Origin: Candidatus Woesearchaeota archaeon
GTDB taxonomy: Archaea; Nanobdellota; Nanobdellia; Woesearchaeales; ARS49
Length of the DNA: 64,000 bases
Assembly (NCBI GenBank): GCA_014729505.1
Contig: WJJS01000001.1
Location: forward strand, 12,938-76,937
Reading direction: 5' to 3'
The notes under the pieces were generated by a model that saw only the letters and a list, made by a program, of their open reading frames with translations, was not told the DNA's origin and made no database searches. Each line of letters starts with the position of its first letter. The stretch's first letter is position 1. Both the position numbers and the translations under genes were made by a program. This document shows, piece after piece, positions 6,649 to 46,269 of this stretch.

Positions 6649-7491
6649 ATGGTGAATGCAAGCGACCTGCTCACAACAACATACGTAACCTGTGATGTAA
6701 ACGACAGAATCTCCTCATTATTAGGAAAAATGAAACGAGCACAGGAAGGAGCTGCAGTCGTAACAAAAAAAGGAAACTATCTTGGCATTGTACATCGCAG
6801 TGCATTTCTCGTCTCGCGAGCGCATGCCAGCGATACAAAAGTAGCAAATATTTACCAACGCCGAAGCAAAGCAAAATCAAACTTTTTTGTACCAACATTA
6901 TCACGCACTTCTTCACTGCCAGTCATGTGCAAACGCATGCTGCAAAGCAATTCACGCATGCTGCCCGTCATGGAAAAAGACCGACTAATAGGAGTAGTTA
7001 AAGATATGGAGTTACTTAAGGCGATAGCTCCAGATTTCTCATCAATACCTGCATTTGAACTGGCAAGCACAGATTCAATAACGGTGAGAGAAAACAACGT
7101 TATTTATGCGGCCATGACTGCTATGAAAAAACACAAGATCGGACACATTCCTGTAGTGGATAAGAACGGAAAACTGTTAGGAATCCTCAGCGGTTATGAT
7201 TATCTGGAAATGCACTTACACTCACGATCACGAATGCATCAGTCACGCAAAGGAACACATTCTGACTACAAAAACCGAGGATTTGATACGGGCGAAAAAA
7301 TAAGTCTTGGAGACTTACCAGTACGAGATTTTATGAGCGAAAAAGTAATCACTGCAACGCCGCGCACAACAATCGCACAATGCATACAACTCATGATAGA
7401 CAATAATGCGCACAGCATTGTTCTCACACGATACGACAAGCCAGTAGGAGTACTTACCTGTCACGATATATTTATTCACGCCGCTCAATAG
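6649..7491 (+). CDS. CBS-domain protein (tandem CBS pairs)
   Basis: 280-aa ORF with repeated CBS-like strands: IGHIPVVDKNGKLLGILSGYD, MLPVMEKDRLIGVV, SIVLTRYDKPVGVLTCHDI. Confidence 0.7.
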   Translation: MVNASDLLTTTYVTCDVNDRISSLLGKMKRAQEGAAVVTKKGNYLGIVHRSAFLVSRAHASDTKVANIYQRRSKAKSNFFVPTLSRTSSLPVMCKRMLQSNSRMLPVMEKDRLIGVVKDMELLKAIAPDFSSIPAFELASTDSITVRENNVIYAAMTAMKKHKIGHIPVVDKNGKLLGILSGYDYLEMHLHSRSRMHQSRKGTHSDYKNRGFDTGEKISLGDLPVRDFMSEKVITATPRTTIAQCIQLMIDNNAHSIVLTRYDKPVGVLTCHDIFIHAAQ

Positions 7492-8320
7492 AAACGCCGG
7501 GAGTAAGAAGTTCCCGCGTAGATAAAGGACAGACAAACGAGGGCAACACTGGTTCTCCAGTACTTCGATTTTCAATTGTCGCGTCATGTCGTGATTGATC
7601 TCTTGAAAGAATGGCTCCGCGTGTTGCACGAAAATGAGTATACAAACGCGCAGCAAGTTCTTGCTCTGTAGGACCAACAATAGTATATTGTTGTCCATTG
7701 GACAATAAATGAACCTGCAACGGCATCTTATACGGCAAAACCAGTTCAGGACCATGAGCACTATTATCAAGATCCTGAGCAGACGCTGCAGAACCATTAG
7801 GATGCGAATGCCAGGTCAGTACATACTCGTGATTCGTTTGAGGACGACCATACGTGTGAGGCAAAATATGTTGACGAGCAACATGTTCAAGAACCTTACA
7901 ATCATCATCACTCCATTCATTTTTTGAAAGCAAAGGACGCGCTTTATCAATCGCTTCTACAACGCCAGTATTACCGGTACGCACGTGCACCCGGCGGGCG
8001 CGAGCAAACAGGCTCTTCATATTGTCAAGATGCTGTGCAGAACCCTCACGTAATTCATTGACATACTCGATCAAGTCAAGAAATTCATTACGCAAAGGAA
8101 CAACAATATAGCGTCCGTTACTCTCGCGGACAATACCGCCAGTTTCATACCCTTGTGTCAACTCGTGATTAGTCTGACTAAGCAAATCACTGCGTGTTTG
8201 ACTGTCCTCAAGCATTTGCATAACGCGAGGACGAATCTCGTCAAGAGAAATGGTGTGCTCGGGCGCGGTACAACCCGCAAGACCGGCCAGTACTATTGTT
8301 GCTAAACGTCGTCCACTCAT
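7472..8320 (-). CDS. Predicted lipoprotein with a JAB/MPN-like metalloprotease motif
   Basis: N-terminus MSGRRLATIVLAGLAGC contains a lipobox (LAGC). YETGGIV and WHSHPNGSAASAQDLD resemble the E...HxHx(6-7)SxxD JAMM signature, with spacing one residue short. It lies 24 nt downstream of lgt. Confidence 0.45.
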   Translation of the reverse strand: MSGRRLATIVLAGLAGCTAPEHTISLDEIRPRVMQMLEDSQTRSDLLSQTNHELTQGYETGGIVRESNGRYIVVPLRNEFLDLIEYVNELREGSAQHLDNMKSLFARARRVHVRTGNTGVVEAIDKARPLLSKNEWSDDDCKVLEHVARQHILPHTYGRPQTNHEYVLTWHSHPNGSAASAQDLDNSAHGPELVLPYKMPLQVHLLSNGQQYTIVGPTEQELAARLYTHFRATRGAILSRDQSRHDATIENRSTGEPVLPSFVCPLSTRELLTPGVSIERRE

Positions 8321-8344
8321 AAAATATATATTGGGAAATATATG

Positions 8345-9133
8345 TTATAAAGGTTTCGGTGATTGGCGATACTGATAATAGAGTATTGCGCTGCCCGCGA
8401 TACACATAACGATATTGAACACCTGACCCAAGGTCAAACCAAGCAGACTTGGTTCGCCCACACGCAAAAACTCAGTACAAAAGCGAAACACTGCATATAA
8501 AATGAGCCAGATCGCAAGAAGACTTCCCGGACGAAGACCGCGATCACGCAAAAGCCACAGCACTACAAAAATAACAACATTATACGCGACTTCATACAAC
8601 TGGTTTGGATGACGAAACACCAATTGACCAAAAGCGTCAGTTTCACCACCAAAATTAACACCCCAGGGAAGCGACGTGACACGACCAAACAGTTCGCCAT
8701 TAATGAAATTACCCATCCTGCCAAAGGCTTGCCCAAGGGAAAGCGGCACAATCAAAAGATCGCCAAGCGAGAGCAACGATAAGCCAAAACGACGAGCAAG
8801 AATATACGCAGTAATAATCATCGCTACAAGAGAACCATGAAAACTAAGACCACCCTTCCAAATAGCAAGAATTTCAACAGGATGAGCAAAATAATAACCG
8901 GGCTGCCAAAACAGAACCTCAAACAGCCGCGCTCCAATAATCAACGCAACAACAAGCCAGACCATGAGCGAGTCCAACTGCTCAAGAGTAAGCGCAGTCT
9001 TTTCTTGACGAATACGACGACGAACATACCAGTACGCAAACAAAAAGGCCAAGACGTACATCACGCCATACCAATGAATCCTCAAAGGGCCAATACTAAT
9101 GAGGACCGGATCAATCGTGTGAATCCATACCAT
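8345..9133 (-). CDS. lgt: Prolipoprotein diacylglyceryl transferase
   Basis: 262-aa polytopic ORF. IDPVLISIGPLRIHWYGVMY, WKGGLSFHG, GRMGNFINGELFGR and HPNQLYE align along the whole length with bacterial Lgt. Confidence 0.9.
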   Translation of the reverse strand: MVWIHTIDPVLISIGPLRIHWYGVMYVLAFLFAYWYVRRRIRQEKTALTLEQLDSLMVWLVVALIIGARLFEVLFWQPGYYFAHPVEILAIWKGGLSFHGSLVAMIITAYILARRFGLSLLSLGDLLIVPLSLGQAFGRMGNFINGELFGRVTSLPWGVNFGGETDAFGQLVFRHPNQLYEVAYNVVIFVVLWLLRDRGLRPGSLLAIWLILYAVFRFCTEFLRVGEPSLLGLTLGQVFNIVMCIAGSAILYYQYRQSPKPL

Positions 9134-9893
9134 ATGTAGCTAATGAAAAAAGACGAATAAATGATAAGAGCGGAAACAGCGCAAGACCAACAACAAATCC
9201 TGCAAAAGGACTTAACAGATTGACGCTATAGATAATGACCTGAGCGAAAGCAAGACTGCCGGCAATCACGACCATCATAGGAACAAAGAGTTTCCAACGT
9301 CGAAGCCCGAGACGAAACGCGTAACGCACATTCAAGGAACCATACGAAATAAGAGCGAAATACACAAGAGCGACAAGCAAGATATAGAACGGAATAAAAG
9401 GCCATACAGGTTTTGTCGTCGAAGTAAGCGATGCAATAAGAGTGTAGCGCAAATCAACATAGAGCAAAGCAAAAAACAACACAAGACCGGAGATAAACCA
9501 TGGCAGATTTACCAAAAAGAAACGAAGAAAAAACCTCTTGACTTCATACATAAGCAAGCGTCTAGACAAATGCCACGCCAAACCCTGAAGAACACCATAC
9601 ACGACGTAAGCAATCAAACCCGCAAGCAGCGTATATAGCACAAACCGCAGTACAAGAGGTTGCAAAGTGCTATGAGACACTAACGTCCACACACTAAACG
9701 AGTCAAGCTGTTGCAACACTTGACCGATACCAGTAGTCAGCGTAAAGGACAATTCCAGTAAACGATCAACAACAGGAGCAGTAGCAAAACCTAGCACAAA
9801 AAGAAAAGAGACATCAATAAGACCAAGAGCAAGCACCACTAACACATTGTTTTTCATCACTCGTGCAGTATAGTAAATACTCTTTTGTAACAT
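9111..9893 (-). CDS. Polytopic membrane protein, unknown function
   Basis: 260-aa ORF with about 7 hydrophobic segments. Its 3' end overlaps the lgt start by 23 nt, and it starts 2 nt after the TPR gene stop. Confidence 0.6.
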   Translation of the reverse strand: MLQKSIYYTARVMKNNVLVVLALGLIDVSFLFVLGFATAPVVDRLLELSFTLTTGIGQVLQQLDSFSVWTLVSHSTLQPLVLRFVLYTLLAGLIAYVVYGVLQGLAWHLSRRLLMYEVKRFFLRFFLVNLPWFISGLVLFFALLYVDLRYTLIASLTSTTKPVWPFIPFYILLVALVYFALISYGSLNVRYAFRLGLRRWKLFVPMMVVIAGSLAFAQVIIYSVNLLSPFAGFVVGLALFPLLSFIRLFSLATYGMDSHD

Positions 9894-9894
9894 A

Positions 9895-11898
9895 TTATTT
9901 CGAACTTTTGAGATACCAATTCCTCAAACGGACAACCTTATCAACAACAGAAGGATACATATAGAACTGACCATATTTTTTTGCAGTTTTACTCAGCAAC
10001 TTATCAAGCTCAAGCATTTTGTACATCACCTGAATAGCGTCCTTTTTGCGATCGTATCTAAACAATAATTTGACAAGTTCGACGCCATCATCAGGATGTT
10101 TGGTCAACTTGTAAAAAATCTCCGCGTGAGAAACAGCCTTATCAGGATCGCCCTTTTGCGCATACAGTATAGAGATTGCTCGATGATACTGGGCAATCCA
10201 GGGCTTCTTTTTATGAAACTCATCGAGCAACTGCATTGCCTCGTCTATTCTACCCTGCGCATGAAGAATCTCTGAGTGCGCATGAACAAGATCAAACTCG
10301 CGAGTCCAAGAAGGTGCTTTATCAAGCAAAGACAGTCCCTTTTTTGGTTTTCCAACAAACGCGAGCAACACTGCTTCCCACAAAAGAAGAAACTCATTAT
10401 GAGGCGCCCTCTTACGAGCTTGTTGTACCACTCGAAGAGCGCGATCGTGATTACCGACGTGACTTAACGCGTTTATCACATGCTCTTCATATTGAAGATC
10501 CTTCTTGTGATATGGCAATCCCCTCTCAAGATACGCCAAAGCCTTTTTTGCTTTACCGTCACTGCGAGCAATACGACTGCCAGTAAGATAGCCAGTCTGA
10601 TCCTTAGGATACCACTTGATAATTTTGTCAGCTATCGGATACGCTTTGCCAGGCTTACCGAAATGATCGAAATCTTCGAGAAGAACATACAATGCGCGAA
10701 AGTTTCTGGGAAACTTCATAAGGACTTTTTTTGCCAGATCGTAATACGAGGTCCAGTCATTGCATTTTCGCAGACACTCAAGAGCAGAAAGCCAATTATC
10801 CAGGGTAGGAGGTAAGGAAAGAAACACCTTAGCAGCTTCGCGAAACCGGCCGAGCTCACGCAAGCAGGTAGCCTTTGTTTCAAGCAACACTATTGAAGAA
10901 TACTGCTTTAACTTTTTGTTTATCTCCCGCAATTTCTCCCGTTCATTGCCCTGCGTAAACAAGACATGAGGGTACAATGATGGAAGTTTGTCAATCTCAG
11001 AAGCTCTCTTCGCATATTCATGCGCCTTTTTATTCTTGCCGATGGAGAAATACAACGCAGTCAATCGGTTACACACATCAGAATTTTCAGGTTGCAAGAC
11101 TGCAAGTTTTTCATAGTCAGCAATAGCTTTCTTGACTTGATCTGTTACCATAAACAAATCAGCTCGGGCAGTGAGAATGCCTTCATCAGGACCCATCAGA
11201 GATATTGCATGTGTAAGAAACTTCTCCGCTTCACTGAATTTTCCTTCGGCTTTAAGAGAATCCACATACACCACGTAATCATATTCTGCAAATGAAAAAT
11301 TCTCTGCAAACGCTTGAGCAAAAAACTTGTTGGCCTTTTTATGCTCATGATTGTCAAAATACCGGCGTGCAAGATCAAGAAGACTGCGTGCAAGACCAAA
11401 CTTACGATGAATTAACTTCAAGGTCTGCTTATACTTCTTGTCATTTCGAGCATAATAATACAGGTGAGCGAGATCTTCATAATGAGACACTTTAAATGGT
11501 TCGAGCTTGATGACTTTCTTCATCGCGCTAAGAGCTTTAGAACTGTTTGTTTCCCTAAACAACCAATACACACGAAGAGGCCAATACACATTATTTGGTT
11601 GCCTCCTCATATACCTACGCAAAAGCCTTTCTTCACCAACAGCGTCGTGAAGCTCCCTATAGACATCAACTTTACTTTGCATAACATCAATTTCTTCAAG
11701 ACCGCACTCTCTTGCTTTGTCAAGGATTGCCAAAGCCTCCTTTTTCTTTTTGAGCTTAGAGAGTAACTCTGCTTTTCTCTGCAAATACAAAGGATGGCGA
11801 GGATTCTTTTCCAAAGCTCTATTGACGATGCGAAGCTGTTGACTAGTTGGTAAGTACGGATTAACAAACGGGAACACGGAATAGGTACAAGTCTTCAT
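9895..11898 (-). CDS. TPR-repeat protein
   Basis: Long helical-repeat ORF with many 34-aa A/Y/L periodic repeats. I trimmed the start to the ATG at 11898 (MKTCTYS...) because the track's 5' extension overlaps a better small gene on the plus strand. Confidence 0.65.
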   Translation of the reverse strand: MKTCTYSVFPFVNPYLPTSQQLRIVNRALEKNPRHPLYLQRKAELLSKLKKKKEALAILDKARECGLEEIDVMQSKVDVYRELHDAVGEERLLRRYMRRQPNNVYWPLRVYWLFRETNSSKALSAMKKVIKLEPFKVSHYEDLAHLYYYARNDKKYKQTLKLIHRKFGLARSLLDLARRYFDNHEHKKANKFFAQAFAENFSFAEYDYVVYVDSLKAEGKFSEAEKFLTHAISLMGPDEGILTARADLFMVTDQVKKAIADYEKLAVLQPENSDVCNRLTALYFSIGKNKKAHEYAKRASEIDKLPSLYPHVLFTQGNEREKLREINKKLKQYSSIVLLETKATCLRELGRFREAAKVFLSLPPTLDNWLSALECLRKCNDWTSYYDLAKKVLMKFPRNFRALYVLLEDFDHFGKPGKAYPIADKIIKWYPKDQTGYLTGSRIARSDGKAKKALAYLERGLPYHKKDLQYEEHVINALSHVGNHDRALRVVQQARKRAPHNEFLLLWEAVLLAFVGKPKKGLSLLDKAPSWTREFDLVHAHSEILHAQGRIDEAMQLLDEFHKKKPWIAQYHRAISILYAQKGDPDKAVSHAEIFYKLTKHPDDGVELVKLLFRYDRKKDAIQVMYKMLELDKLLSKTAKKYGQFYMYPSVVDKVVRLRNWYLKSSK

Positions 11899-11953
11899 AG
11901 AGTAACACCTAAGTCGAGAAAAGTTTAAATAGTATAAAAACCATACTGTTTTC

Positions 11954-12124
11954 ATGGCCAAATTGACACTACGATGCACTTCATGCAACTGGAAATTCCG
12001 CAGAGTATACGAACCAAAACTGTGTCCTAATTGTGGCAAAGCCACCGTAGAAAAAGACAAACGTCAAGGCGCTTCTGACATTCTGCGAGAACTCGACGAG
12101 ATGCAGTCGGGTTTTGATCGCTAA
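11954..12124 (+). CDS. Small zinc-ribbon protein (56 aa)
   Basis: Hand-translated; it is below the track's length cutoff. MAKLTLRCTSCNWKFRRVYEPKLCPNCGKATVEK... has a CxxC-x13-CxxC knuckle pair. Confidence 0.5.
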   Translation: MAKLTLRCTSCNWKFRRVYEPKLCPNCGKATVEKDKRQGASDILRELDEMQSGFDR

Positions 12125-12159: not shown

Positions 12160-13257
12160 CTACGACACTTCGTGAGTTTTGTACACCACATTAAGCGCAT
12201 CAAGATTGCGCAGCACATACATGCCATCATTTTCTACAGTGCCAAGATCACTCCATGTCGCCTGAATACCCTGATAGTACTGAGCCTCTTTATTGAACAA
12301 CACTGTTGGCGTAACGTTAATAGCATATCTTGACATCAAACGCTGACCATCAGGACTGGACACATCATAGGACACCTGACTCAAGAACACCATACCAAAA
12401 TTATCCTCAAAAATGGAAGTTACTGCGGAAGTATCAGAACAGGTCTCACACGTTTCATCAGTAAGAATAATCATAGTCGCTAATCCTCTCACGGTCTTTT
12501 CTTCACGATCAACATAGGGAGCAGGAGTATCACGAAGCACGTATTTACCATCTGACTCCACAGAACCAATACTCTGCCAGCCAGCACGAATAAACTCATA
12601 CTCAGAAGCATCATTTGAAAGAATAAGAGAAGGCGTTCTTGTAATATTATAATGATCAAGAAGACGCTGACCGTCAGCACTGGATGATTCAATCGTTTCA
12701 ATAGCTGAAAAGACCATCCCATTCAGTTCCAACTGCGAAAGCAAACGCTGAGTATCAAAACATTCAGGACAATTCTCATCCTCAAGAACAAGAGCAGTCA
12801 CCAAACCAAATACTTCGCCATCAAGATTAGAATACGGAACAAGAGAGTCAGACAAGACATAACCACTATCACTTTTTACAAACAAAGGAATCTGATCAAG
12901 ACGAGGATCAGCACCCTCAATAACAATAGCCGGCAATTTTTCAATAGAGAACTCCTCAATCAAAGATACTGCCTGGGCTTGCGTCTTATACTCCACTTCT
13001 TCAAAGACAAGACCTGCAAGTTCCAAAGCCTGAACAATCTCAGACGCGTTTACACACTGATCACAAAACGGTTGAATAACAGTTGCACGCAGTGAGGATG
13101 ATTCACTAGGCACAATGTCAATAACCGGTTCCTCGCCAGCGCGAGAAACGTAAAAAGACAAGATCACATTAGCCAACGTTGCAATAACAATCAAAACAAC
13201 GAGCAATACATGCAGCGTCGTCCACGGTGATTGCATCTTTTTTGCTGACATAGACAA
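12160..13257 (-). CDS. Membrane-anchored protein with three tandem thioredoxin-fold-like repeats (CxxC + cis-Pro loop)
   Basis: N-terminal TM helix, then three repeats of about 100 aa. Each has CxxC (CDQC, CPEC, CETC) and, in repeats 2 and 3, a TP(S/T) loop (ITRTPSL, NVTPTVL). Confidence 0.6.
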   Translation of the reverse strand: MSMSAKKMQSPWTTLHVLLVVLIVIATLANVILSFYVSRAGEEPVIDIVPSESSSLRATVIQPFCDQCVNASEIVQALELAGLVFEEVEYKTQAQAVSLIEEFSIEKLPAIVIEGADPRLDQIPLFVKSDSGYVLSDSLVPYSNLDGEVFGLVTALVLEDENCPECFDTQRLLSQLELNGMVFSAIETIESSSADGQRLLDHYNITRTPSLILSNDASEYEFIRAGWQSIGSVESDGKYVLRDTPAPYVDREEKTVRGLATMIILTDETCETCSDTSAVTSIFEDNFGMVFLSQVSYDVSSPDGQRLMSRYAINVTPTVLFNKEAQYYQGIQATWSDLGTVENDGMYVLRNLDALNVVYKTHEVS

Positions 13258-16036: not shown

Positions 16037-16831
16037 CTATTTTCGCGTTGATTTCCTGCTTTTTTTCTTCGTTGCCTTCTTCTTTTTACGCGAAACAGAT
16101 TTTTTTGCGGTTTTCTTTACAGGTTTTTTTGCTTCTTTAGACCTGCCCGTTGATTTTTTAACATTTTTTTTACGCGCCTTGATCGAAGGAATAACCGGTT
16201 CTTCAGGTTCCACAAGAGGAGACTTACTGCGACGACGAGAACGCCAAGCGCCTACCATGATCATGATAAACACTCCAATGAGTACAATCATAAGAGCAGA
16301 AAAGAACGTCACGCCGGAGACTCCCTGAATGATGCCAGTAAAAAAATACCCTGTCCATGCAAGAGCAAACAGCACGTACAGTACCACCGCAATCGTCGCT
16401 ACCGCCTTGACCAAGAAGTCAGCAATCCTGCTTGACGGAAACATAAGCAAGATAGGCAACAATACCAAAACAAATGCGATAATAAGAAGAAAAAGCGATA
16501 CAATAAGAGCGACAACAAGGAAAAAAGACGTAACAGTCACATACGACCATGCAATAAGATGCTGCATATATGAAGCTTGAGCGCCAACAACGAGCGTTGT
16601 CACATACGTATATGCCGCAGCAAGAACCACACCAATAACACAGTATGACCAGCGAACTACAGCACGCGCAACAGGATGGGCAACGTCACGAAGACCTGCC
16701 TTAACAAAAGAAAACAACAACGCAGCAACAGCAATAATAATAGCGGATTCCCACAATACCGTAGAACTCACCGTTTGAGCGATATCATGAGGCCTCCACA
16801 ATAAGGAGAGAAAAGCATACCAGTCGATCAT
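16037..16831 (-). CDS. Polytopic membrane protein with Lys-rich (H1-like) C-terminal tail
   Basis: 264-aa ORF with about 6 TM segments, then KARKKNVKKSTGRSKEAKKPVKKTAKKSVSRKKKKATKKKSRKSTRK. Confidence 0.55.
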   Translation of the reverse strand: MIDWYAFLSLLWRPHDIAQTVSSTVLWESAIIIAVAALLFSFVKAGLRDVAHPVARAVVRWSYCVIGVVLAAAYTYVTTLVVGAQASYMQHLIAWSYVTVTSFFLVVALIVSLFLLIIAFVLVLLPILLMFPSSRIADFLVKAVATIAVVLYVLFALAWTGYFFTGIIQGVSGVTFFSALMIVLIGVFIMIMVGAWRSRRRSKSPLVEPEEPVIPSIKARKKNVKKSTGRSKEAKKPVKKTAKKSVSRKKKKATKKKSRKSTRK

Positions 16832-17517
16832 TTTTTATTCCTCTTTCTTACTTTACGAGTCCTGGTAGTATAAGTTTCTTTCGCTGCTGTCGCTCTACGA
16901 AAAAAACCAGAACCTCGCTCAAGAAGACGACCCCACACGCCACGAGCAGAACCGATCAGTGCTGCACCGATTACTGCAAACAATACAACAGCTGCAGAGG
17001 AAAAGCGACTGATCTCGTTTGCATGAGCAACAGAAGTAATATGAACGATCAAACCAAAAAGGAAGGAAACAAACGAAAAGATCCACGTACAAATGACGAT
17101 CCATCCAATTATTGAAGGCATTTTATCATTTTTAACTACTCCTCGATTTTCGAAGAATACATACGTCCTAAGAAACAGAAAGTAAAGACCTGCAAGGAGA
17201 ATACCATACACCCCGATAATCACTGTAACAGTCAACATTACATAGAGCAAAAAAGCCACATTGATCTGAAAATCCACCACGCCACTAAAAAGAGCGCTTG
17301 CCAGAGTGATATATACCCAGTATCCTAGAAGAAACGCTGCAGTAGCAGCAAAACGTACCGCCCTGGTCTTCAAAGAAATAAGGACTTCATGTTTGCGTTT
17401 TCCGCTGCCAAGCGCTGCAAGAGCGAGCAGAATCACCACACCAATAGAAATGGTGATGCCCTCAATAAAATGTGCGGGCGGCACAGCCACTGAAATGATA
17501 AAATCACTGAATGTCAT
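16828..17517 (-). CDS. Polytopic membrane protein with basic C-terminal tail
   Basis: 229-aa ORF with about 6 TM segments, ending TRTRKVRKRNKK. It overlaps the next gene by 4 nt and has a similar layout to 16037-16831. Confidence 0.55.
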   Translation of the reverse strand: MTFSDFIISVAVPPAHFIEGITISIGVVILLALAALGSGKRKHEVLISLKTRAVRFAATAAFLLGYWVYITLASALFSGVVDFQINVAFLLYVMLTVTVIIGVYGILLAGLYFLFLRTYVFFENRGVVKNDKMPSIIGWIVICTWIFSFVSFLFGLIVHITSVAHANEISRFSSAAVVLFAVIGAALIGSARGVWGRLLERGSGFFRRATAAKETYTTRTRKVRKRNKK

Positions 17518-20135: not shown

Positions 20136-20253
20136 GGCGGAGTGGCTTAGCCTGGTTAGAGCACCGCGCTCATAGGTCATACCTTTGAGCACTGAGCTTT
20201 CGAGCTATGACGAAGAAACGCGGGGGTCACGAGTTCAAATCTCGTCTCCGCCA
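20136..20253 (+). tRNA. tRNA-Met/Ile2-type (anticodon CAT) with a 43-nt canonical intron (37/38)
   Basis: Acceptor GGCGGAG/CTCCGCC, anticodon arm CCGCG-CTCATA[intron]A-CGCGG, T arm ACGAG-TTCAAAT-CTCGT, discriminator A, T6 run after. G1:C72 argues against an initiator. Confidence 0.8.
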
Positions 20254-30889: not shown

Positions 30890-31126
30890 ATGCCATACGA
30901 TAAAAGTCTTGATAAACAGCTCTTTAGTGAGTCAGTAGAATTTGAAACCACGAGACTAACAGTTAGTGTATTCTCGTACAACGACGGAACACCAAAAATC
31001 CAGATCGCCAGAGAAAATAAGAACCGCGACGGAGAATGGCAGTTTGCAAAGCTTGGCCGCATGGTCAAAGCAGAAGCTGAAGCCGTCTTACCACTACTCA
31101 AGAAAGCGGTAGAATCACTCGATTAG
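30890..31126 (+). CDS. PC4/YdbC-like ssDNA-binding protein
   Basis: 78-aa ORF. RLTVSVFSYNDGTPKIQIARENKNRDGEWQFAKLGRMVKAEAEAVLPLL follows the YdbC/PC4 pattern. Confidence 0.5.
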   Translation: MPYDKSLDKQLFSESVEFETTRLTVSVFSYNDGTPKIQIARENKNRDGEWQFAKLGRMVKAEAEAVLPLLKKAVESLD

Positions 31127-31470
31127 CGCGATAAGTGCACTTCAGTAGCATTGTCGCCAGATCCTATAACGACATAAACATCAGTACGTTCTTGATCGAA
31201 AAACACGGTGTACGGCAACGTTCCCCCATCAGATTGAAGAGCAGTCGTCGCGTAGCACATCGATTTATTCTTATATGCTGTCATACCCTGAATAACGGTT
31301 TTCACACCATCTTCAGTCGTTAATTCTCCTGCTTTACACCACTCCGTGGAAGGAGCGGATGGTGCAGTTATGACTCCAGCATTCTTGGAACTCGTCGTTT
31401 TCAGCGTTTGCTGACAAGCGCTCATCAACAATAAAGACACTAGGATCATCACTACACACAATCGTTTCAT
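31123..31470 (-). CDS. Predicted secreted lipoprotein
   Basis: MKRLCVVMILVSLLLMSAC is a signal peptide with a lipobox-like MSAC. Confidence 0.5.
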   Translation of the reverse strand: MKRLCVVMILVSLLLMSACQQTLKTTSSKNAGVITAPSAPSTEWCKAGELTTEDGVKTVIQGMTAYKNKSMCYATTALQSDGGTLPYTVFFDQERTDVYVVIGSGDNATEVHLSR

Positions 31471-33807: not shown

Positions 33808-33917
33808 ACTAATCCCCCGTGTATACCATCACTATCACTTTCTTTTAAACGTTTCGTCTGCCCATGCAATGCAAAGACAATAATAAAGTTTATAGCAAAC
33901 GTCATGTTCTTACCAGT

Positions 33918-35107
33918 ATGCGCGTTTTTGAAAGAGGGGAACTGAGACTCTTATGGCCGTTTTATGCCGATTATCTACTATCACAACTACTCTTTTTTGC
34001 ACCAGCGTTTTACATCGTGTATTTTCTGGATATTGGCCTGTCCTTGTTTCAGTTAGGACTTGTTATGGCTGCAGCACCACTGGCAGGTCTGCTCTTTGAG
34101 ATTCCAACAGGAGCCGTAGCAGATCTGTACGGGAGAAAATTTTCAGTCCTGCTAAGCTTTCTACTGGTAGCAGCAGGTTATTTGCTTCTCTTCTTCTTTA
34201 CAAGTATCCCAGCACTTATTGCCATTTTTGCGTTAATCGGATTTGCAGGAACATTCTGGTCGGGAGCAAAAGATGCGTGGGTTGTTGATCTTATAGGAAA
34301 AAGAAAAACATTACTCCAAATTATTTTGCAAAAGCAGATTTTCTCAGCAGTCTTGGACTAGTCATATCAGGCATCCTTGGAGCGTTCATTGTTGAAGTCA
34401 TTGGCCTACGATCCATATGGTTATTTGCTGCAGGTGCGTACGCGATATCATTTGTAGTTCTACTCACAGCCCCTGAACGTTATCGCAGACGACACACTTC
34501 ATTTAGTCGAGCTCTTAAAACTGTAACACAACAAAGCGGGGATGCGTTACGATACTGTCGAATGCACCACATACTTTACGCATTTTTCATTGCAAGCGCT
34601 CTTTGGCTTATCGCAGGAGCAATAGGAGGAGTCATGGCATGGACACCCTTTCTTATCGAACTTGGTTTTGCAGAACAACACTTTGGCTACTTGTGGAGTG
34701 CGATGGCCGTAGTACAAATGATGGGACTTGCCATCTCACAATTCGCTCTAAAAACGATCTCGTCTCGAAAAGTGATCATTGTTGCCCAGTCATTGTTTGC
34801 TGCAACTCTCCTTGCCGTGTATTGGGTATCTTCACTGCCGTTTGCGTTGTTACTGGTACTGTTTAGCATCTTATTTGCCTCAGCAAAAGCACCTTCATTA
34901 AACGTGTTCTTTCATCGGTTTACTCCTTCATACATGAGAGCAACCATCGGTTCAGTCAAGGCAACACTCGGCGCAGCTATAGCCATACTCATGATGCCGA
35001 TTTCAGGACATTTTATTGACACTATAGGTGCTCAAAACGCATTATTTAGCGCGGGACTTGCATTACTGCCTGCAGTAGGGATATACCTGCTAATGAAAGA
35101 ACACTAA
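33918..35107 (+). pseudogene. MFS transporter interrupted by a frameshift near 34298-34321 (or a sequencing error)
   Basis: ORF 33864-34361 (TM1-4, ADLYGRKF) and ORF 34562-35107 (TM7-12) join if the reading frame shifts in the A5-G-A5 tract. The other frame then reads KNITPNYFAKADFLSSLGLVISGILG and continues. Confidence 0.6.
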
Positions 35108-42882: not shown

Positions 42883-43659
42883 ATGCACAAAGCATTAACG
42901 ATAGTATTGCTAGGAATTCTTCTAGTTGGATGCTCAACAACACTAGACACGTCGTCGACAAATCCGCCAACAGCGCCGCACTCAACTTCAAGTCCTCCAA
43001 CAACACAACACCCCGCAACAGAGAACAATTCACAACACACCACAACACAAAATGATTCACAATATCCGACAACGCAGAACGATTCACAACACACGGCAAC
43101 CAATGACTACGTTGCGGGACGAGAACTCTTCAAACTACAACGGGATTCAGACAGTGCACTGGGACAACGAGTAACAGACTTTTTCCCACTTCCTGCAGGA
43201 GCAGTTCTTGTCGAGACAAGACATTTTGGAGCGCAACAATTCAAAGCAAATCTTGTATCAAAAACAGGAGACATATTTCCTTTAGTCAATGATGAAGGAT
43301 ACATTCTTACCACTACGCTGCACTCTTTTGCGGCAGGCCAGTACCTGCTAGACATGATCATCAATGGCGAAGTTACCTTTATCATACGAACACCGGACAT
43401 AGAAGAAGCAACATCATGGAGCGGAGCCGGCAAGAAGTTCACCCCCTTCTTTACACTTTCAGGAACCAACACCTTTGAGATGTCGTTTCAAGGAAATGGA
43501 TTATACATCGTGTCACTATACAATCAAGCAGGAGAACGCATCGCCGTACTTGCACAAGGCGACACCACAGAAAAAACAAACACTGACGTAACCGTACCAC
43601 AAGGACTCTATCTGTTAGGTATAGAATCAACAGGAGTCTGGGACATACAACTCAAATAA
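42883..43659 (+). CDS. Predicted lipoprotein with low-complexity T/Q/N stalk
   Basis: MHKALTIVLLGILLVGC contains a lipobox (LVGC), followed by TTQNDSQ(H/Y) repeats. Confidence 0.55.
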   Translation: MHKALTIVLLGILLVGCSTTLDTSSTNPPTAPHSTSSPPTTQHPATENNSQHTTTQNDSQYPTTQNDSQHTATNDYVAGRELFKLQRDSDSALGQRVTDFFPLPAGAVLVETRHFGAQQFKANLVSKTGDIFPLVNDEGYILTTTLHSFAAGQYLLDMIINGEVTFIIRTPDIEEATSWSGAGKKFTPFFTLSGTNTFEMSFQGNGLYIVSLYNQAGERIAVLAQGDTTEKTNTDVTVPQGLYLLGIESTGVWDIQLK

Positions 43660-43671
43660 TTCCAACTACTT

Positions 43672-44157
43672 CTAATTAAGAGCGACAATCGCCGTATTAA
43701 GAAGAGTGGCAAACAAAACCCAGAACGCATAAGGAAGCAACAACCACAACGTGACCTTATTCACACGATAAAATGCGCTTATCATACCAACAATCGCGCC
43801 GTTGAGCAGAATAATGTCAACCAGCGCCGCCAAAGGATTCTGCAAACCAAAAAATAAGATACTCCATAACATATTAAGAACCCAATGAGCTGCAAACCAG
43901 TACGACGCGTTCTTATCAGGCCAGACAAGATAGAGTGCAATACCAATAAGCGTGAATAAGGTAAGCCACACCGGGCCAAACAACCATGAAGGAGGTTGAA
44001 ATGCGGGAAAGGTCAATGTCAAATACCACGTTCTCACACTACTCGCGGTAAAAAAACTTCCAATAAATCCCGCTGCATGGGAGATAAGCAAGCACAGAGC
44101 AAGAGTACGCCATCGCATACGTATAAGAAAGCTCCAGAGTTTTTTAAGATTATGCAA
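43672..44157 (-). CDS. tspO: TspO/MBR family tryptophan-rich membrane protein
   Basis: 161-aa, 5-TM ORF with PSWLFGPVWLTLF and WVLNMLWSILFF. Confidence 0.8.
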   Translation of the reverse strand: MHNLKKLWSFLIRMRWRTLALCLLISHAAGFIGSFFTASSVRTWYLTLTFPAFQPPSWLFGPVWLTLFTLIGIALYLVWPDKNASYWFAAHWVLNMLWSILFFGLQNPLAALVDIILLNGAIVGMISAFYRVNKVTLWLLLPYAFWVLFATLLNTAIVALN

Positions 44158-46145: not shown

Positions 46146-46269
46146 TCCCCGCCCCCGGACTTGAACCAGGAACCTCGCGGTGACGGCTGACTCGCCTTCA
46201 CGTCTCGAGCGTTGCTCGGAATCAGTTGAGTTTCTACAGCCGCGCGCTCTACCATTGAGCTAGGCGGGG
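46146..46269 (-). tRNA. tRNA-Tyr (anticodon GTA) with a 52-nt canonical intron
   Basis: Acceptor CCCCGCC/GGCGGGG (the C1:G72 archaeal Tyr identity pair), anticodon arm CGCGG-CTGTAG[52]A-CCGCG, T arm CCTGG-TTCAAGT-CCGGG, discriminator A. Confidence 0.85.

Follow-up and report, generated by a model that had tools for sequence, protein, structure and literature searches.

An lgt gene cluster in an archaeal setting

We analyzed a 64-kb stretch of DNA (64,000 nucleotides, hereafter the window) from contig WJJS01000001.1 of a Candidatus Woesearchaeota archaeon, in which a gene for prolipoprotein diacylglyceryl transferase (Lgt) is located. The list of open reading frames (ORFs) of the window places lgt in a tight series of four ORFs on the minus strand, and all four were present as the original prediction had described them. 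In the direction of reading, they encode a tetratricopeptide repeat (TPR) protein, an Lgt-associated membrane protein for which we use the name TM7, Lgt itself and a lipobox protein. The features of the locus are as follows:

9895-11898, minus strand: TPR-repeat protein, with matches to TPR-type Pfam families (the ORF runs from a TTG as 9895-12060; the ATG at 11898 is the likelier start)
9111-9893, minus strand: TM7, 260 aa, a member of an orphan family (ORF and hydropathy)
8345-9133, minus strand: lgt, prolipoprotein diacylglyceryl transferase, 262 aa (PF01790, TIGR00544)
7472-8320, minus strand: lipobox protein, 282 aa, with the signal peptide MSGRRLATIVLAG-LAGC and a weak JAB/MPN-like motif, HSHPNGSAASAQD (lipobox scan)
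8345-8351, minus strand: TATA-like TTTATAA over the lgt stop codon, ~28 nt 5' of the lipoprotein ATG (read from the sequence)

The TM7 ORF begins 1 nt past the TPR stop codon and overlaps lgt by 23 nt, and the lipobox gene, whose product has the N-terminus MSGRRLATIVLAGLAGC, begins 24 nt past the lgt stop codon.

The product of lgt matched PF01790 with 238.1 bits (gathering cutoff 24.9, E=1e-70) over model positions 1-240 of 240, and the NCBIfam equivalog TIGR00544 with 216.8 bits against a cutoff of 118.9. These matches agree with the earlier recognition of a full-length Lgt at 8345-9133 by the motifs HWYG, WKGGLSFHG, GRMGNFINGELFGR and HPNQLYE, all of which occur in the translation. The protein also aligned end to end with E. 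coli Lgt (5azb, chain 5azb_A; E=4e-44), and we took the residue map from this alignment, in which the chain numbering equals the native numbering plus one. Y22, H99, D125, R139 and N142 correspond to E. coli Y26, H103, D129, R143 and N146, and E147, G150, Y213, R217 and E221 correspond to E151, G154, Y235, R239 and E243. In an alignment of 30 DPANN Lgt homologues, Y22, R139, N142, E147, G150, R217 and E221 were invariant, and H99, D125 and Y213 were at least 90% conserved. Among the E. coli counterparts, Y26, N146, E151, G154 and E243 are required or important. R143, R239, H103 and Y235 are important for the function of E. coli Lgt (PMC12462473). Thus the catalytic residues, whose absence the original prediction had regarded as decisive against it, were present at every position checked in the 5azb alignment. 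Gaps in the same alignment make the head-domain region ~23 residues shorter than its E. coli counterpart. Hydropathy gave 4 strong segments by a crude count; the end-to-end alignment with the sequence of the seven-transmembrane E. coli structure would imply the same topology for Lgt. The protein is 100% identical to one of a Woesearchaeota metagenome-assembled genome (MAG) at NCBI, where it is named 'prolipoprotein diacylglyceryl transferase', and TM7 and the lipobox protein are 100% identical to the NCBI proteins GF342_00100 and GF342_00090 (Candidatus Woesearchaeota MAG, 79-kb contig).

We further examined the surroundings of the gene. NCBIfam equivalogs in the window included archaeal GltX (beside the cluster), EF-1α, aEF-2, the thermosome, split RpoB''/B' and RpoA'/A'', family B DNA polymerase and Rad50, and the GC content was uniform at 0.40-0.45. 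Rfam tRNA matches of 118 nt (20136-20253, plus strand) and 124 nt (46146-46269, minus strand), neither of which was called by ARAGORN, are presumably intron-containing archaeal tRNAs. The order GltX-TM7-Lgt-CBS-P-type ATPase-glycogen synthase of the window recurred in its closest syntenic relative, L081, an independent contig from a JGI metagenome (L numbers denote the loci compared). Because it is shared at an Lgt identity of only ~55%, this order points to a long vertical residence and speaks against a chimeric assembly. Bacterial contamination or chimerism of the lgt block, which would fit the facts that Lgt is otherwise a bacterial hallmark and that MAGs can hold mis-binned contigs, is effectively refuted by the archaeal informational genes on both sides of the gene within a 64-kb stretch of flat GC, by the equal gene order in independent assemblies and by the closest relatives of the protein, which are from DPANN archaea and not from bacteria. 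The original prediction had likewise held contamination to be improbable. These findings suggest that Lgt is genuine, of the bacterial type, apparently functional and stably resident in an archaeal genome.

The best 120 Lgt homologues were 47-64% identical and all carried PF01790, and the named ones among them came only from Woesearchaeota, Aenigmarchaeota, Nanoarchaeota or an 'archaeon'. Scanning one genome for each GTDB species, we obtained 13 lgt loci from archaea and 67 from bacteria, the bacterial sample being limited by the peptide patterns used in the scan and hence biased. In this pattern-limited scan, the closest bacterial Lgt proteins, ~40-44% identical, were from Nitrospirota, Desulfobacterota and Syntrophaceae. 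A rough neighbor-joining tree placed 14 archaeal Lgt sequences in a single clade apart from 66 bacterial sequences. DPANN Lgt thus appears to form a large, DPANN-specific clade that probably goes back to a single old transfer from bacteria to archaea, followed by inheritance in the lineage. Of the earlier proposal that this lineage had acquired a bacterial Lgt, the bacterial origin stands as the parsimonious reading; the clade spans Woesearchaeota and related DPANN archaea, which does not fit a recent acquisition by this organism. The phylogeny that the original prediction had called for yielded the archaeal clade and only a provisional donor. L003, L004 and L012 are titled 'uncultured Methanosarcinales archaeon' although their Lgt and TM7 group with Woesearchaeota; these titles probably reflect mislabelled MAG taxonomy.

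TM7, the conserved companion of lgt

A hidden Markov model (HMM) of the TM7 family detected TM7 directly 5' of lgt or overlapping it in L001-L005, L010 and L081, and in 0 of 67 bacterial loci (Fisher p=1e-6; the loci are not phylogenetically independent). On the contigs of TM7 homologues of 25-34% identity, Lgt was the next gene in L084/85, L088, L089 and L090, whose flanks were otherwise unrelated and whose GC content ranged from 36% to 56%. Altogether, TM7 and lgt abut or overlap in 12 contexts. The sole non-adjacent case was L091, where lgt lies 6.4 kb downstream of the TM7 homologue on the same strand. Overlaps of 4-23 nt between the two genes suggest translational coupling. With the family HMM, no TM7 was detectable in L012, L013, L016, L027, L030 and L061, which are more divergent lgt loci of archaea. 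In L056, a protein with six transmembrane (TM) segments encoded 5' of lgt matched the TM7 profile over the N-terminal half (hhalign probability 93%).

The pairing could also be a mere neighbourhood, in which a TM7 of unrelated function is kept beside lgt by the shared ancestry of close genomes. The sampled loci are indeed phylogenetically related, and TM7 was undetectable in about half of the divergent lgt loci from archaea. We nevertheless regard this explanation as highly improbable, since the pairing is kept while all flanks differ (L081, L084, L088, L089, L001) and holds at Lgt identities down to ~40-50% and across the GC range given above, and since the gene overlaps and the remote half-length homologue upstream of lgt in L056 argue in the same direction. 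The membrane protein proposed earlier as a partner of lgt therefore behaves as its conserved companion.

The other members of the series did not share this conservation. The genes for the TPR protein and the JAB-like lipoprotein had no tblastn match in related loci and were both missing from the syntenic L081; they were rejected as parts of a conserved module. The four-gene operon is thus specific to this genome, and the conserved unit is TM7-lgt only: the operon as originally described holds for its TM7-lgt core, which recurs in relatives, and not for the TPR and lipobox genes.

TM7 showed six TM segments by hydropathy, plus amphipathic helices, which corrects the seven segments counted originally. 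It had no sequence match in Pfam, NCBIfam or the PDB, and a word-indexed homologue search returned only TM7 itself, so that an exhaustive phmmer search was required to define the family. This search, against 1.84 billion cluster representatives, revealed 99 relatives. Apart from four shorter fragments and one repetitive protein of 1161 aa, they are 205-320 aa long, and the match covers most of each sequence. D27, G35, W107, F125, W132, S183 and Y184 are nearly invariant in the family, and Q103, N129 and R/K247 are also conserved. At E<=0.1, the Choline_transpo and EI24/CysZ Pfam models matched 0 of 64 family members, and the TM7 profile found nothing among PDB sequences. A relationship to Lgt as a divergent paralogue, in the manner of the AliA/AliB pair, was rejected (hhalign probability 0.5%).

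The structure of TM7 was predicted with AlphaFold2 from a 64-sequence alignment (pLDDT 95.8, pTM 0.89), and this model was used in place of the single-sequence model, which was unusable (pLDDT 57.5). Superposition gave scores of 14.4 on yeast PNS1 (9f63; 229 residues, 3.2 Å), 13.6 on human CTL1/SLC44A1 (7wwb) and 10.0 on CysZ (3tx3), with 6.8 for the next best structure. A Foldseek search of the model against the PDB returned nothing significant, the top match being CysZ at E=1. These results suggest that TM7 is an undescribed family with a predicted CTL1/PNS1/CysZ-like bowl fold. In contrast to CTL1/SLC44A1, PNS1 and CysZ (7wwb, 9f63, 3tx3/6d9z), to which it has no sequence similarity (6-9% identity), TM7 would be a minimal, archaeal version with six TM segments and no extracellular domain, genetically tied to lgt.

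Alternatively, TM7 could supply the second enzyme that is missing, either as a signal peptidase II analogue or as an N-terminal modifier. Its tight coupling to lgt, the absence of a locally detected LspA and the nearly invariant polar residues D27, S183, Y184 and R/K247, together with Q103 and N129, would fit such an enzyme. The residue pattern also offers an objection: the family has a single acidic residue that is nearly invariant, and neither the His nor the second Asp expected for known intramembrane protease classes. As the predicted fold matches CTL1/PNS1/CysZ and no peptidase, we consider this role very unlikely.

Elsewhere in the window, the overlapping genes 16037-16831 (minus strand) and 16828-17517 (minus strand) encode proteins with six TM segments and basic C-terminal tails that belong to no Pfam family. 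They were examined as kin of TM7 and rejected, being unrelated to TM7 and to each other.

Lipobox proteins and other neighbours of lgt

The lipobox scan covered all window ORFs of at least 60 aa and revealed three lipobox N-termini, that of the gene downstream of lgt (7472-8320, minus strand) and the following two:

31123-31470, minus strand: second lipobox ORF, 115 aa, ...LLMSAC, MKRLCVVMILVSLLLMSAC (lipobox scan)
42883-43659, plus strand: third lipobox ORF, 258 aa, ...LLVGC, MHKALTIVLLGILLVGC (lipobox scan)

Both of these N-termini, LLMSAC at 31470 and LLVGC at 42883, had been noticed earlier and are real according to the scan. Beyond these, the scan matched only an internal alternative start in an ORF that runs off the left edge of the window; this match was disregarded. 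On comparing the loci, the 1.5 kb downstream of lgt were found to contain the start of a same-strand lipobox ORF in 6 of 14 archaeal loci versus 4 of 67 bacterial loci (p=0.0013). Further lipobox ORFs lie beside lgt in L084 (VASC) and L089.

The 7472-8320 protein matched Prok-JAB with E=7.5e-4 and 19.8 bits, which is under the Pfam cutoff of 25. Its putative JAB/MPN+ motif, HSHPNGSAASAQD, reads HxHx6SxxD and is one residue short of the JAMM pattern E...HxHx7Sx2D. The word-indexed homologue search with this protein gave only the protein itself, and there was no match in the PDB. The TTTATAA at 8345-8351 may be a separate promoter of the lipobox gene, which may thus have its own transcription; the genome is AT-rich. 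The 3' end of the gene overlaps by 20 nt (7472-7491) with that of a convergent gene for a protein with four CBS domains (6649-7491, plus strand). Directly after the third lipobox ORF lies a gene for a TspO/MBR family protein (43672-44157, minus strand; E=3e-41).

The TPR protein matched 22 TPR-type Pfam families and has no signal peptide. The ATG at 11898 is a likelier start than the TTG at 12060 because a TATA-like TTTATA/TATTTAAA lies at 11924-11938, 30-37 nt upstream of this ATG. Upstream of the cluster, one further gene was recorded:

12160-13257, minus strand: membrane-anchored protein with three thioredoxin/glutaredoxin-like repeats (Pfam Thioredoxin_2/_3, Glutaredoxin)

This gene is missing from L081 and has a homologue in L005. 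Small glutaredoxins or DsbA-like proteins are also encoded near lgt in L084 (6857-7135) and L091 (7427-9471, 16470-17150 and 17976-18209), and more redox genes were found near archaeal lgt in L003 (4974-5225), L004 (8929-9177) and L030 (6813-7118). The recurrence of thioredoxin-, glutaredoxin- and DsbA-like neighbours suggests a thiol-redox theme around lipoprotein biogenesis.

The most elaborate neighbourhood was that of L091. Between positions 10001 and 18209, the TM7 homologue is followed in order by genes for a methyltransferase, a Prok-JAB protein, ACPS, an Aas-like protein (AMP-binding/PP-binding/PlsC-type acyltransferase) and a cupredoxin lipoprotein, then by further genes and those for a DsbA-like protein, Lgt and a glutaredoxin; DsbA-like proteins and cupredoxin lipoproteins are encoded around these genes. 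Judged from its gene content, this envelope island implies putative acyl-ester lipid remodelling in a DPANN archaeon. In E. coli, lplT-aas links lysophospholipid recycling to lipoprotein N-acylation. The likeness is that in L091 the TM7 homologue heads a same-strand run with an Aas-like acyl-ACP synthetase/acyltransferase and ACPS, in an island shared with lgt; it is confined to this one locus, no Lnt was identified, and TM7 is unrelated to LplT, a transporter of the major facilitator superfamily (MFS).

Apart from the lgt locus, two short adjacent ORFs of the window, 33864-34361 and 34562-35107 (both plus strand, ~200 nt apart), match the N- and C-terminal parts of the MFS_1 model. They may represent an MFS transporter gene that has been disrupted or frameshifted.

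A possible lipidation route in DPANN archaea

We consider it likely that an intact bacterial-type Lgt lipidates the archaeon's own lipobox proteins, that its DPANN clade stems from one old transfer and that TM7 works with Lgt. This proposal builds on the identity of the gene, the conservation of its residues, its archaeal context, the structure of the clade, the pairing with TM7 and the adjacency of lipobox ORFs; from these we infer enzymatic activity, the identity of the lipid donor and the role of the partner. On the outer face of the membrane, Lgt would transfer the lipid moiety of a phosphatidylglycerol-type glycerophospholipid to the lipobox Cys of exported proteins and would thereby form a thioether anchor, as Lgt does in bacteria. 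The substrates would be the archaeon's own lipobox proteins, several of which are encoded right 3' of lgt in many relatives. TM7, which appears to be translationally coupled to lgt, would work with Lgt by handling either the lipid donor or the released glycerol-phosphate head group; this is the weakest step of the proposed mechanism. As to the source of the lipid, GGGP and DGGGP synthases are reported to be missing in Woesearchaeota, which probably obtain lipids by scavenging them from other organisms (PMC8421398). L091, with its genes for acyl-ester remodelling, gives a hint of possible handling of bacterial-type lipids.

Several points weigh against this proposal. Archaeal membranes normally contain ether lipids of the opposite glycerol stereochemistry. 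LspA (PF01252) had no Pfam match among the small multi-TM ORFs of the window, and neither these 64 kb of the genome nor 80 of the loci compared contained an LspA motif pair; LspA may still be encoded elsewhere in the genome, and a complete bacterial pathway (Lgt-LspA-Lnt) would be no more than a possibility. That TM7 is undetectable in about half of the more divergent lgt loci of archaea counts against a general partnership. The function of the CTL fold is itself disputed (PMC13160678). Since the distance tree is rough and the bacterial sample biased, the reading of a single transfer and its donor are only provisional.

In part, the same points would suit an Lgt that is real and repurposed. 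Only the transferase would then have been imported, and it would either use an archaeal ether lipid (archaetidylglycerol), yielding an archaeol thioether, or act on a non-lipobox substrate. In Haloferax, AliA/AliB, which are unrelated to Lgt, provide lipoproteins with a thioether-linked archaeol (PMC12462473), no LspA was seen in the window or the loci compared, and the part of DPANN Lgt that aligns with the head domain of the E. coli enzyme is shorter. Repurposing nonetheless appears unlikely in view of the conservation of all head-group and catalytic residues, the lipobox ORFs that adjoin lgt and the acyl-ester lipid remodelling genes that share an island with lgt in some relatives.

The closest known systems include bacterial Lgt and archaeal AliA/AliB. 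With bacterial Lgt (5AZB/5AZC), the window protein shares full-length homology, all checked residues and candidate lipobox substrates encoded nearby. It differs in its archaeal host, in its separate DPANN clade with ~40-44% identity to the nearest bacterial sequences, and in its genetic context, as TM7 was never seen beside lgt in the 67 bacterial cases examined. With AliA/AliB of Haloferax volcanii (arCOG02177/02178), it would share the task of thioether lipidation of the lipobox Cys in an archaeon (PMC12462473). AliA/AliB are no detectable Lgt homologues (HHpred 29% per PMC12462473), whereas the window protein is a true Lgt. The distribution of AliA within DPANN has gaps (PMC12462473).

Lgt has been stated to be absent from archaea in Nat Commun 2025 (PMC12462473), where this absence was the premise for identifying AliA/AliB, and in mBio 2026 (PMC13251419), where it was concluded from RefSeq genomes as of February 2021; the original prediction had summarized the literature in the same way. 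We found no paper that notes lgt in DPANN archaea or Woesearchaeota, within a literature coverage that is incomplete, so that an earlier mention is possible. Lgt itself is already annotated in NCBI; what is new is the conflict between this gene and the published consensus, together with TM7 as a family that has a predicted CTL-like fold.

A more specific form of the proposal is that Woesearchaeota and related DPANN archaea possess a bacterial-derived lipidation system with TM7, a minimal CTL/SLC44-PNS1 bowl, as its obligatory second component. TM7 would act on the lipid donor or on glycerol-phosphate, and surface proteins would be anchored with host-derived, possibly bacterial-type lipids. We put this forward tentatively and regard it as doubtful.

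The window and the over 100 related clusters in the database show canonical Lgt to be present in a whole archaeal lineage. Archaeal lipoprotein biogenesis would then follow at least two unrelated routes, AliA/AliB and, in DPANN, Lgt. This raises the question of which lipid a bacterial-type Lgt uses in a probably lipid-scavenging archaeon, a question that bears on the hosts of Woesearchaeota. TM7 is a testable candidate for a new component of the lipoprotein pathway and may offer a way to approach the function of the CTL/SLC44 fold, which is poorly understood. If TM7 does prove obligatory with Lgt, the pairing would be the first genetic clue to a phospholipid-related function of the CTL fold.

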